Source of the DNA: a virus
DNA: 64,000 nt
Virus genome (UHGV): UHGV-1376965
Reading direction: 5' to 3' (one strand)
In this document: positions 5,231 through 6,031 of the stretch, piece by piece
Layout: each line of letters starts with the position of its first letter
Numbering within the stretch: the stretch's first letter is position 1
The notes under the pieces: model-generated
Databases searched by the model: none
What the model saw: only the letters and a program-made list of their open reading frames with translations
What the model was told of the DNA's origin: nothing
Position numbers and translations under genes: made by a program

Positions 5231-5232
5231 GC

Positions 5233-5340
5233 ACAACAGGTAAGGGTATTTTGCGACGTCGGAGATCGCCGAGCTTGGCAGAGGGTTCGAATCCCTACGA
5301 AGTACCCTTACCGTTGTGATGAATGCGCAGGCTGATGCGC
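5233..5340 (+). repeat. structured repeat unit 1: 74-nt tRNA-sized element (10-bp terminal stem, T-arm-like AGGGTTCGAATCCCT) plus GTGATGAATG and hairpin gcgcaggctgatgcgc
   Basis: ggtaagggta (5239-5248) pairs perfectly with tacccttacc (5303-5312); internal T-loop-like motif; does not fold as a canonical cloverleaf. Confidence 0.5.
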
Positions 5341-5445
5341 GAAAGACATTGCAGCTATTGCGGAAAAGAGCTGTTCGGCGGGGCAATTAAACGCCCGTGA
5401 GAGTCTGAAATAACCGCAAGCCGGAGATCAGCACCGGTCATCACA

Positions 5446-5536
5446 ACACAACAGGTAAGGGCATTCTCCCTTATGGGGCTTGGCTTAAATGCATCGAGTG
5501 CTCTTACCGTTGTGATGAAGTGCAGCTCTTTGAAGC
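5446..5536 (+). repeat. structured repeat unit 2 (degenerate copy)
   Basis: Shares cacaacaggtaagggcattctc ... gagtgctcttaccgttgtgatgaa with units 1 and 4; imperfect stem. Confidence 0.45.
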
Positions 5537-5650
5537 AACCAGAAGATAAGCATCTGGCTTCACAACATAAACCGCAGGAACGACCAATAAACGGTAGTCC
5601 GTATGGAGAACACCCCGTTGAGGAAGAGGCCTGGCCGGAACCGTAACCGG

Positions 5651-5769
5651 CACTACAACGTTGAGAACACTGGCGTAACGGGGTCATATCCCAATCTACG
5701 AATAAATGTTGCGTTGCAGCGTGACAACCAGTGTTCTCAACATTGTGGTGAATGCACAGGCTGATGTGC
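5651..5769 (+). repeat. structured repeat unit 3: 23-bp interrupted helix enclosing conserved inner hairpin, plus GGTGAATGC and hairpin gcacaggctgatgtgc
   Basis: 5651-5673 pairs with 5728-5750 (core 14 bp GTTGAGAACACTGG/CCAGTGTTCTCAAC perfect); loop contains gtaacggggtcatatcccaatctac shared with unit 4. Confidence 0.55.
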
Positions 5770-5930
5770 CGCAACTACAGTAGTGCGCGCTTTGCGGGGC
5801 TTGCTACAACCCTGTGTCGGAGTTCAGCACCGACCATCACAGTTTGATTCTCTGGCATGAGCATAACGCTGAAATAAGTCCAGCCTGGTGCGGCCCGATC
5901 ACCCGCCGTTAGCTCCACGAAACGGAGCAC

Positions 5931-6031
5931 GTAACAGGTAAGAGCATTCTCCTGTAACGGGTTCATATCCCAATCTACAGGTCCACCAAGAATGCTCTTT
6001 CCGTTGCGGTGAATGCGGCTAAGCGCACGCG
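5931..6031 (+). repeat. structured repeat unit 4: long helix enclosing the same inner hairpin, plus GGTGAATGC and a GC hairpin
   Basis: ggtaagagcattct (5937-5950) pairs with agaatgctctttcc (5989-6002) with one mismatch; inner cctgta-acgggttcatatcccaatc-tacagg. Confidence 0.55.

Follow-up and report, generated by a model that had tools for sequence, protein, structure and literature searches.

Positions 5231-6031 of the window, that is, of the whole 64,000-nucleotide (nt) stretch of virus genome UHGV-1376965 analyzed here, hold an array of structured RNA elements, and the description of this array as a mosaic of two alternating modules common to many enterobacterial phages is strongly supported. 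The window belongs to a P1-like phage or phage-plasmid, with 98-100% identity to P1, RCS47 and vB_EcoM-813R1 across 4400-6200, and the annotation of reference P1 (NC_005856), carried over by alignment, places the array in the C1-repressed ban operon, within its long untranslated leader. An earlier reading of the letters alone (the first-pass annotation) had described four tRNA-like units here, each a long helix followed by a conserved box and a short GC hairpin; its unit boundaries did not hold, two module types having been merged, namely H, a long hairpin, and X, a domain closed by its own helix. The modules follow one another in the order H0, two tRNA genes, H1-X1-H2-X2, a spacer, H3-X3, a second spacer and H4-X4.

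All four long-helix units claimed earlier are present as inverted repeats at 5231-6011 (H1-H4, z = -6.1, -6.0, -8.3 and -6.5, respectively), but the family has a fifth member, H0, located 5′ of the tRNA genes. Each H module has a core stem of 12-14 base pairs (bp), about 19-23 bp when extended, and a variable apical insert, and its 5′ motif AACRGKTRAGRRCNNT is found in five copies in the window against 0.49 expected. H0 (4790-4876, plus strand; inverted repeat I2) and H3 (unit 3; 5651-5750, plus strand; inverted repeat I1, enclosing two small hairpins) have 23-nt arms and minimum free energies (MFE) of -42.8 and -47.9 kcal/mol (z = -5.4 and -8.3); H arms of this length are 91% and 83% complementary. 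The stem of H1 (unit 1; 5232-5318, plus strand; inverted repeat I6; MFE -41.6 kcal/mol, z = -6.05) comprises 15 bp and a 6-bp extension past a bulged A, and two hairpins lie inside it, one small and one with a T-loop (AGGG-TTCGAAT-CCCT). H2 (unit 2; 5447-5514, plus strand; z = -6.0) carries the insert TCCCTTATGGGGCTTGGCTTAAATGCA, which recurs in the virulent phage SUSP2 under a different, compensated outer stem. The claim that units 3 and 4 share an inner module while their outer stems compensate each other was borne out by direct sequence reading: H3 and H4 (5930-6008, plus strand; inverted repeat I5; z = -6.5) have in common the 25-mer GTAACGGG[G/T]TCATATCCCAATCTAC at 96% identity (repeat family D5), and their 14-nt outer strands differ at six positions that are altered on both sides, with pairing preserved.

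Relative to dinucleotide shuffles, H0-H4 fold on the plus strand with z = -5.4 to -8.3, and in every case the plus-strand fold is 4-10 kcal/mol more stable than that of the minus strand. The stem base consists of two G-C pairs followed by U-A or U.U and reads GGU...UCC. The extended helices, at 19-23 bp, have the size of an RNase III site (at least 20 bp, about two helical turns, mostly Watson-Crick). Among 31 aligned stems, a U.U mismatch recurs at the third pair from the base in 15 (columns 3/26), and a U.G at the eleventh pair is kept in 18 (columns 11/18); these two positions may be recognition features.

The 3′ portions of the units described earlier belong to a second domain. The box and the short GC hairpin noted there are real, but they constitute the 5′ closing strand and first hairpin of X, whose partner strand follows 90-135 nt downstream. 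As originally written, G(T/G)TG(A/G)TGAATG, the box has no match; the actual consensus is TTG(T/C)G(A/G)TGAA(T/G), that is, TTGYGRTGAAK, of which 5314-6014 holds four copies, although 0.47 would be expected over the entire 64 kb. One extra match, at 38964, has a weak partner and is probably due to chance. An X module is closed by a helix of 9 bp or more and contains two near-invariant hairpins, P2 (GCGCA-GGCTGA-TGCGC) and P3 (CCGG-AGATCAGCA-CCGG, as RNA CCGG-AGAUCAGCA-CCGG), and a variable middle. X1 (5313-5447, plus strand), closed by GTTGTGATG (5313-5321) and CATCACAAC (5439-5447), has P2 and P3 in exactly these forms on either side of its variable middle. Lambdoid phages such as mEp460 match the stretch 5313-5449 at 98% identity; in them it lies 3′ of the repressor gene in the early-left leader, and the mEp460 closing pair GTTGTGGTG/CACCACAAC is a compensatory change relative to X1. 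The X-carrying immunity region of mEp460 also holds, by the antirepressor gene, isrK (67 bits) and a C4-antisense-like RNA (44 bits; locus L002, 1-171, minus strand).

X2 (5510-5566, plus strand; repeat families D1 and D2) is a short, degenerate X-like element in which TTGTGA and TCACAA flank the hairpin CCAGAAGATAAGCATCTGG; its fold is no better than that of shuffles (z = -0.16), and the module recurs in other phages (query positions 266-342 of the relatives search). X3 (5742-5843, plus strand) is closed by ATTGTGGTG/CATCACAGT, including two G.U pairs, and its MFE structure displays the closing helix, P2 (GCACA-GGCTGA-TGTGC) and P3 (TCGG-AGTTCAGCA-CCGA). X4 (6003-6135, plus strand), an STnc100-like element, is closed by GTTGCGGTG/CACCGCAGC (6003-6011 with 6119-6127) and followed by a T6 run at 6128-6135; it folds with z = -3.2 and ends ~25 nt 5′ of the first open reading frame (ORF) of the downstream cassette. 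The loops of P2 and P3 are complementary (GCUGAU/AUCAGC), and this complementarity is mostly kept in variants, making a kissing interaction plausible on sequence grounds; the search pattern fixed P2, which places covariation of this candidate loop pairing outside its reach. We note that the spacer nearest cas2e in a type I-E CRISPR (clustered regularly interspaced short palindromic repeats) array of Escherichia coli EC-1639 (NZ_LR025101.1; L349, 403-434) is identical to the 3′ part of X4 (window 6095-6126), and that the minus strand of the window carries a canonical AAG protospacer adjacent motif beside this protospacer (CTT at 6127-6129); a host has thus gained immunity to cassettes of this type.

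The compensatory pattern proposed by the first-pass annotation held when more homologs were aligned. Viral contigs were scanned with the X 5′ core, yielding at least 120 loci and at least 106 distinct X copies; fractions of X copies given throughout refer to the copies listed. For the X closing helix, the P3 motif, and not complementarity, served to anchor the 3′ strand, and only the four outer positions left unfixed by the search pattern were scored. These positions pair in 76, 73, 61 and 47 of 84 distinct sequences, with three to five pair types each, for a total of 257 paired cells against 207 +/- 6.3 with shuffled partners (0/2000 shuffles reach the observed value), and shifted registers score far lower. 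An upstream H partner (at least 11/12 bp within 140 nt) accompanies 63/106 X copies compared with 3.2% in shuffled controls, and these 63 reduce to 37 distinct stem pairs. When 31 distinct H stems from independent phage contexts were aligned, 93.8% of cells were paired and 52 cells had changes on both sides, spread over 9/12 pairs; covariation scored 0.499 compared with 0.194 in shuffles (0/500), and registers slid out of frame are ~50% paired. Selection thus acts on a folded single strand, as had been claimed for RNA or single-stranded DNA (ssDNA). G.U pairs are frequent in the H stems, including the conserved U.G in 18/31, and because of these pairs, together with the 4-10 kcal/mol advantage over the minus strand, it is the transcribed plus strand that folds, which points to RNA.

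The strand between H and X, here called a′ (GUUGYGRUG in RNA, GTTGYGRTG in DNA), has two partners, either the 5′ flank of H or the 3′ end of X. The H 5′ flank (e.g. ACCACAAC) is complementary to, and covaries with, the 5′ closing strand of X: a flank-a′ helix of at least 6 contiguous bp can form in 28/37 units among the X copies listed, its mean length is 5.46 bp against 3.48 +/- 0.25 with shuffled partners (0/2000), and covarying flank/a′ pairs include CCACAGG/CCTGTGG, CCAACAA/TTGTTGG, CCATCAT/ATGATGG and CCAACAC/GTGTTGG. The two pairings are mutually exclusive, because one and the same strand either extends H into a duplex of ~20-23 bp or closes X. Within the P1 array, the 3′ strand of X doubles as the 5′ flank of the following H. 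Two mutually exclusive helices that both covary point to a regulated folding or processing step, as far as can be read from the alignments.

The resemblance to tRNA is confined to a few modules. Unit 1 is indeed tRNA-sized (74 nt, 5239-5312) and is no cloverleaf: its MFE structure is a long stem with two small hairpins, ARAGORN called only the three true tRNAs in the window and neither a tRNA in any H unit nor a transfer-messenger RNA (tmRNA), and the Rfam tRNA model (RF00005) has no match on 5231-6031 even at E<=10. The T-arm-like motif reported for units 1, 3 and 4 is perfect in unit 1 but weak in units 3 and 4, where the loop reads GUCAUAU; the inner hairpin of H4 is deleted altogether in the relative Ro157c2YLVW. 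Even in unit 1 it departs from a tRNA T arm, as the 4-bp AGGG-UUCGAAU-CCCU hairpin abuts the 15-bp stem, pairing continues and there is no free NCCA end. A T-arm-like hairpin occurs in 6/37 distinct H variants, with inserts in other variants reading TAGAG-TTCGACT-CTCTA, GTGGG-TTCAACT-CCCAC, GGACG-TTCGAAT-CGTCC and GTCGG-TGCGATT-CCGGG.

The modules span P1-like, lambdoid, Felix-O1-like and Vi1-like phages. Comparison with P1-like phages, which the first-pass annotation had recommended, established that the array is shared, but also that modules are gained and lost and that reference P1 lacks X1+H2: relative to NC_005856 the window has one extra X1+H2 unit of 196 nt (window 5307-5519 against L001 2400-2420), an indel bounded by the 17-nt direct repeat CTTACCGTTGTGATGAA. 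Ro157c2YLVW lacks H1 and has an extra tRNA-Tyr, and phage D6 has a tRNA-Ser(UGA) between X3 and its H4 (L004 2606-2693); the latter tRNA scores 43 bits on the Rfam tRNA-Sec model, the gathering score of which is 47. We propose that this variation among P1 relatives arises when whole modules are gained or lost by recombination at shared boundary sequences. The 'spacers' of the array turned out to be shared modules too (query positions 339-445 and 624-718 in the relatives search), and a conserved small hairpin, GCTCC-ACGAAAC-GGAGC (CGTTAGCTCCACGAAACGGAGC; window 5880-5925), stands 5′ of H hairpins in unrelated contigs including L061 and L080. Module pieces were also found in the tRNA clusters of the virulent phages SUSP2 (Ounavirinae) and T751 (Ackermannviridae). 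In Klebsiella phage T751, a 3.3-kb stretch with no annotated genes (L007 1472-4809) contains a tmRNA-like tag block, one H-X unit and several tRNA-like remnants that ARAGORN leaves uncalled, and an above-threshold STnc100 match lies at L007 3997-4211.

A tRNA gene is located within 700 nt of 19/106 X copies, always co-oriented, compared with 5% for random positions; the other 87/106 have no tRNA within that distance, and lambdoid prophage leaders carry the modules without a neighboring tRNA. X is directly 5′ of dicB in the Qin prophage, of tciA in P1 and D6 and of a 78-amino-acid (aa) ORF in the window, and it immediately precedes N-like antiterminator genes in several lambdoid contigs (Pfam N36 and N_peptide; PHROG 271). 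Matches are present in 1362/5426 E. coli genomes, on P1-like plasmids and chromosomes and in unannotated DNA, at a median of one place and a maximum of three places per genome. The first-pass annotation would have withdrawn its claim had the units been a known host repeat family; the copy number just given shows that they are not, and a dispersed family of the REP/BIME or ERIC kind was rejected on this count.

The setting of the array was derived by carrying the NC_005856 annotation onto the window through alignment (locus positions 1493-1522 and an offset of 2899 for Oban/Pban). The C1 operator Oban and the promoters P1ban/P2ban, where the ban transcript starts, map to 4392-4421 on the plus strand, and are followed on that strand by the 'dicF-like region' (4516-4612, a P1 misc_feature), which, by a terminator scan, has an intrinsic terminator at its end (a stem at 4585-4604 and a T-run after it) and which is homologous to Qin sequence just 5′ of dicF. 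Next come tRNA-Asn(GUU) (5077-5152) and tRNA-Thr(UGU) (5155-5230), both on the plus strand (ARAGORN; Rfam tRNA 72-73 bits). A scan of 4200-7700 for sigma-70-like promoters found no internal promoter and, because Pban and its operator are annotated upstream, co-transcription of the array with the tRNAs is consistent with these data. The ban operon is the P1 counterpart of the lambdoid early-left (pL or dicB-type) operon. Downstream of the array on the plus strand, the first translated cassette consists of the 78-aa ORF (6159-6395) and a 275-aa SPFH/Band-7 lipoprotein (6376-7203), followed by a third tRNA, tRNA(CAU) (7231-7306; ARAGORN), and, at the distal end of the operon, by ban itself (7587-8957), which encodes a DnaB-like helicase. 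Where the window has this cassette, reference P1 carries tciA-tciB-tciC, a swap of cassettes 3′ of X4, and the T-run after X4 is found only in the 78-aa ORF/SPFH cassette type.

The first-pass annotation had treated the array as an ORF-free stretch preceding upl and plp. The plus-strand genes 3′ of the array are instead the 78-aa ORF and the SPFH/Band-7 lipoprotein, and both reference P1 and RCS47 (NC_042128) annotate plp ('putative lipoprotein') and upl on the minus strand, right over the units. If these coding sequence annotations were correct, the stretch would encode minus-strand Plp and Upl proteins and the repeats would be incidental, and stop-free minus-strand frames of 139 and 109-118 aa do exist in the window (5355-5774 and 5775-6104). 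We regard this as extremely improbable. Across the four relatives compared (P1, the window, Ro157c2YLVW and D6) neither the length nor the phase of the frames is conserved, and the 196-nt indel shifts the frame; P1 plp overlaps tRNA-Thr; a Pfam search of the frames gave no matches; and among the RefSeq E. coli P1-like plasmids listed, those matched over the full length have no feature annotated at this place by the Prokaryotic Genome Annotation Pipeline (PGAP). The same modules also occur in other phages, where Plp and Upl ORFs cannot be conserved. Thus, plp and upl are probably annotation artefacts.

As to function, we incline, slightly beyond an even balance, to the view that the modules are cis-folding elements of the early transcript that serve in processing, in stability or as scaffolds for small RNAs. 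The modules would fold co-transcriptionally in cis on the polycistronic precursor and keep 1.7 kb of untranslated RNA structured, and the long helices, by analogy with the lambda N leader, would serve as RNase III sites beside the tRNA sites cut by RNase P and RNase E. The modules may also define the 5′ end of the first downstream cistron, determine its stability and translation, and leave stable structured fragments of the STnc100/PasD kind. The earlier suggestion that the units are small stable RNAs co-processed with the tRNAs comes near this explanation and is plausible. Several points weigh against the cis-processing account. Cleavage, stable products and an effect on expression are the parts of it that we infer, and the only documented RNase III site of the homologous Qin operon is located outside X, 5′ of DicF. 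Taken alone, X1-X3 fold no better than shuffles (z = -0.2 to -1.8). The 5′ partners of H were picked by complementarity, which biases the counts from the 31 stems towards pairing, the shuffles (3.2%) being the unbiased control. Finally, P2 and P3 are almost unchanged in over 100 contexts, which suggests an additional ligand that is specific, or a tertiary fold; a simple processing-site model leaves this constancy unaccounted for.

Control of transcription is an unlikely alternative, in which the modules would recruit Nus factors in the manner of nut or boxA sites, gate read-through to the SPFH gene and ban by an a′ terminator/antiterminator switch, or protect against Rho. Most H 3′ strands do read (A)GUGCUCUUUCC or CGCUCUUUUU, resembling boxA (CGCUCUUA in lambda, UGCUCUUUAACA in rrn), with a 5-bp hairpin 12-14 nt further on in boxA-boxB order, and X adjoins N genes in pL-type leaders; within H, however, this boxA-like strand is engaged in base-pairing, and covarying variants have unrelated sequences in its place (e.g. 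AGTGGGGTTATC and AGCGTCGTTACA), X occurs once per immunity region and not as a left/right pair, and lambda-type N genes by X keep lambda-like 5′ flanks, so that their own nutL would lie 5′ of X. The T6 run (6128-6135) would make a closed X4 terminator-like, with extended H4 preventing closure, but reference P1, D6 and Qin lack this run. Ribosomal RNA operons offer a precedent in which boxA stands beside an RNase III stem arm (PMC4807359); HK022, which uses put RNA, lacks X. We consider it very unlikely that the units are tRNA mimics or decoys that titrate tRNA-binding factors, or tRNA genes in the course of decay. Unit 1, with its 74 nt and perfect T-loop hairpin, the four further T-arm-like H inserts, the enrichment of modules by co-oriented tRNA genes and the tRNA-like remnants in the tRNA region of T751 would fit such an origin, but no unit has a cloverleaf or a tRNA score, the H stem of 15-21 bp without a 3′ end is not a 7-bp acceptor stem, and the T-arm-like hairpin is found in 6/37 H variants and is deleted from H4 in Ro157c2YLVW. 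The T-arm-like inserts are a minority, and tRNA decay or mimicry is therefore not a general explanation. Nor did the general label 'tRNA-like' survive, given hypervariable inserts, no tRNA or tmRNA score and 87/106 X copies with no tRNA nearby; neutral decay is disfavored because 9/12 stem pairs covary and the modules are conserved over P1-like, lambdoid, Felix-O1-like and Vi1-like phages. Elements acting as DNA, such as recombination sites or mobile cassettes of attC-, REP- or MITE-like character with covariation arising from folded ssDNA, are highly improbable. Cassette-like gain and loss bounded by direct repeats (the 196-nt indel), the direct repeat (a) flanking each H-X unit and the shuffling of modules among unrelated phages would suit them, and attC sites preserve structure while their stem sequence is free. 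Many G.U pairs, however, would be A.C mismatches on the other strand, and only the transcribed strand folds well; the median of one place per E. coli genome indicates no dispersal; no associated recombinase was noticed, in a search that was not exhaustive; the complementarity of a′ to the flanking repeat is unexplained by target-site duplication; and the indels are explained by homologous recombination at shared boundaries. Integron attC-like and IS200-like ssDNA elements were rejected specifically, on the strand-specific G.U pairs and on the complementarity between an internal strand and the flanking repeat.

A further alternative concerns a tmRNA-like block upstream of the array (4636-4705, plus strand), outside 5231-6031, in which a conserved leader, GCGACTTTGCGG..TTTAGAAACTGACCA..TAAAT, precedes a tag-like frame. 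This frame, 4673-4702, reads ANDDLMMVAA with its stop at 4703-4705; it opens GCA AAC GAU, ends GCN UAA and has no start codon, and thus shows the GCA start and the hydrophobic (A/V)A end expected of a tag. The block exists in 15 distinct nucleotide versions in phages, always of 10 codons plus a stop, with synonymous changes and with stops in the other frames; D6, T751, SUSP2 and the temperate-phage contigs L057, L061, L080, L096 and L099 have it, and other tags read ANDDVVLMAA, ANDDLMLMAA, ANDEQFLAVA, ANDNTFLAVA and ANDNVFLAVA. Rfam matches are weak, tmRNA_permuted scoring 24.1 bits against a gathering score of 47, with a weak beta_tmRNA match besides, and the identities lie mainly in the tag region. 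Following the tag stop, a predicted H-type pseudoknot and a hairpin, CCCCGT..ACGGGG, lead into H0 (4719-4795, plus strand, from sequence reading); in the pseudoknot the stem 4719-4724 would pair with 4736-4741 and the loop GTCG (4730-4733) with CGAC (4750-4753), and the loop pairing covaries, being GTCG/CGAC in P1, CCGA/TCGG in T751 (L007 2425-2480) and CCAA/TTGG in SUSP2 (L008 2415-2470). A 14-mer from the tag region led to 44 viral contigs (among loci L010-L129) with permuted, two-piece tmRNA genes called by ARAGORN, several of them with 10-aa tags such as ANDERFALAA, ANDEVFALAA and ANDNVWALAA; phage-borne two-piece tmRNAs appear to be common. These 44 permuted tmRNAs in viral loci served as a control for ARAGORN, which called no tmRNA in the window; no chargeable tRNA-like domain (TLD; acceptor stem, G3:U70, T arm and 3′ CCA) is recognizable in the P1 family.

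From this block one could derive a tmRNA-based system, which we think rather unlikely, in which T-loop hairpins such as unit 1 are closed, non-chargeable relics or mimics of a TLD that act with the tag block, for example by binding SmpB or by feeding the tag template into ribosome rescue. The alignment of ANDDLMMVAA* after UAAAU to the tag region of tmRNA_permuted, the 15 phage versions of 10 codons each, the true permuted tmRNA genes with similar 10-aa tags in viral contigs and the covarying predicted pseudoknot after the tag argue for it, as does the position of unit-1-like hairpins next to the tag block, directly 5′ of it in contig L099, where the acceptor piece of a permuted tmRNA would be, and immediately 3′ of it in L080. 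A phage RNA consisting of a TLD alone that inhibits tmRNA provides a precedent (PMC4131195). Against this, neither ARAGORN nor Rfam recognizes a tmRNA or TLD, the hairpins have no free acceptor end, CCA or G3:U70 but a base of G-C, G-C and then U-A or U.U, only 6/37 H variants have the T-arm-like hairpin, the tag block accompanies 11/106 X copies and H and X are common in lambdoid leaders devoid of it. It is distinctly unlikely that the ban leader represents a new phage RNA class derived from two-piece tmRNA, with a tag template and pseudoknot, T-loop H hairpins and an X scaffold. Related leaders are found in several temperate phages and in Felix-O1-like and Vi1-like phages; were the proposal true, such RNAs would, as the phage develops, take over or block the SmpB-dependent rescue of ribosomes or mark host proteins for degradation with the tag, and the alternative a′ pairings would switch the RNA between a processed and an active form. 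Literature searches on phage-encoded tmRNA and tmRNA-like phage RNAs, and on the P1 ban operon with tRNA, returned nothing relevant.

The array bears on a textbook phage: ~900 bp of the P1 ban leader are annotated as two hypothetical proteins on the wrong strand where the evidence says structured RNA, and the reference annotations of plp and upl can be corrected concretely. The modules are widespread, with at least 106 distinct X copies in viral contigs and matches in a quarter of complete E. coli genomes as well as in virulent Felix-O1-like and Vi1-like phages. A role in early-transcript processing, small-RNA production or ribosome rescue, if true, would concern a large number of temperate phages, Stx phages and P1-like phage-plasmids with resistance genes among them.

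Among known systems, permuted tmRNA and the TLD-only RNA of mycobacteriophage DS6A share with the P1 block a tag in the resume context UAAAU-GCA-AAC-GAU, the (A/V)A end, a pseudoknot and, in part, T-loop hairpins (PMC4131195, PMC11915505). Unlike them, the P1 block has no acceptor end, CCA or G3:U70 and stays below ARAGORN and Rfam detection, and the units of the array lie at least 530 nt 3′ of the tag, beyond two real tRNAs. Species 1 and 2 of phage T4 (rnaC/rnaD) are non-tRNA structured RNAs of a phage tRNA operon, co-transcribed and co-processed with the tRNAs, and the modules likewise occur within the tRNA clusters of the virulent phages SUSP2 and T751; the T4 RNAs are single genes and not alternating modules with covarying alternative helices, and the likeness noted is one of genomic setting. 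In ribosomal RNA operons, boxA adjoins the upstream arm of a long-range RNase III stem, and the array resembles this model in having a boxA-like sequence 5′ of a strand paired 90-240 nt downstream, in an untranslated transcript with embedded tRNAs (PMC4807359). It differs in that the H stem sequesters the boxA-like sequence, which some variants lack. A lambdoid nut site was set aside on the same pairing and replacement of the boxA-like strand and on the single X per contig region, and HK022 put RNA was rejected after the whole HK022 genome had been checked, with no X/H motif in the immunity region or early leaders or just 3′ of Q.

A scan of Rfam at E<=10, which included ribozymes, riboswitches, GOLLD and ROOL, returned only tRNAs, STnc100, the weak tmRNA models and spurious microRNA-like hairpins. 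X4 is, by its score, a sub-threshold relative of STnc100 (RF02076), a kinship that the first-pass annotation had not picked up: the match of 6003-6127 reaches 37.8 bits (E = 5.8e-6) against a gathering score of 47 and covers model positions 31-147 of 206, and the X4 homologues score 48.8 bits in T751, which passes, 39.6 in D6 and 34.4 in Qin. Shared features are the closing helix caUGGUG...CACCAug, the GGUGAAU junction, the first hairpin and the 3′ hairpin CCGGGAGGCACCCGG. The STnc100 model has neither an H partner nor an alternative pairing, and it matches none of X1-X3 and no H hairpin; as judged from these comparisons the family is widespread, and only its 3′-most variant is near a curated family. 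STnc100 and PasD are related prophage small RNAs, and STnc100 has been detected by reverse transcription-quantitative PCR in outer-membrane vesicles of Shiga toxin-producing E. coli (bioRxiv 10.64898/2026.05.13.724894; PMC12370729). Like the array, they are phage-borne and non-coding and occupy operon leaders or intergenic spots (PMC12370729; bioRxiv 10.64898/2026.05.13.724894), but published descriptions make them Hfq-type small RNAs that end in a terminator and neighbor Q, stx or lysis genes; the elements of the window lie inside an early-operon leader. The STnc100-like element of Qin sits between dicF and dicB. The Qin dicBF operon has a documented RNase III site 5′ of DicF, which gives a 190-nt species; the X helix was considered as this site and dropped, as the site maps 5′ of DicF in the counterpart of the 'dicF-like region' (bioRxiv 10.1101/2023.04.14.536235).

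The lambda N leader is likened to the array through its sequence and position. In the N-like lambdoid contigs, X is flanked by GGCTTTGGGGTGTGGTG...CACCACACCACCAAAGC; these flanks correspond to the stem GGCTTTGGGGTGTGTG...CACACACCACCAAAGC of the lambda N leader, which ends 21 nt 5′ of the N start codon and which we take to be the RNase III-sensitive hairpin of that leader. Work by Steege in 1987, Kameyama in 1991 and Wilson in 2002 reportedly found that RNase III cleavage of the N leader raises N translation and relieves N autoregulation; to our knowledge, such cleavage and translational effects are known for lambda only, and we know of no N gene in P1. The lambda interior differs from X in lacking the conserved P2 and P3, and P1 differs from lambda in having four X copies, three of them with no ORF directly after. 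Contigs with lambda-type N keep lambda-like sequence 5′ of X, where nutL lies in lambda; boxB falls outside the sequence read. The lambda hairpin is situated between nutL and the N ribosome-binding site, and X occupies the equal position, 5′ of the first early-left gene; both consist of a long helix (~16-17 bp for the closing helix of lambda-type X) around a structured interior of ~90-240 nt, and the N-like contigs retain nearly the same stem.

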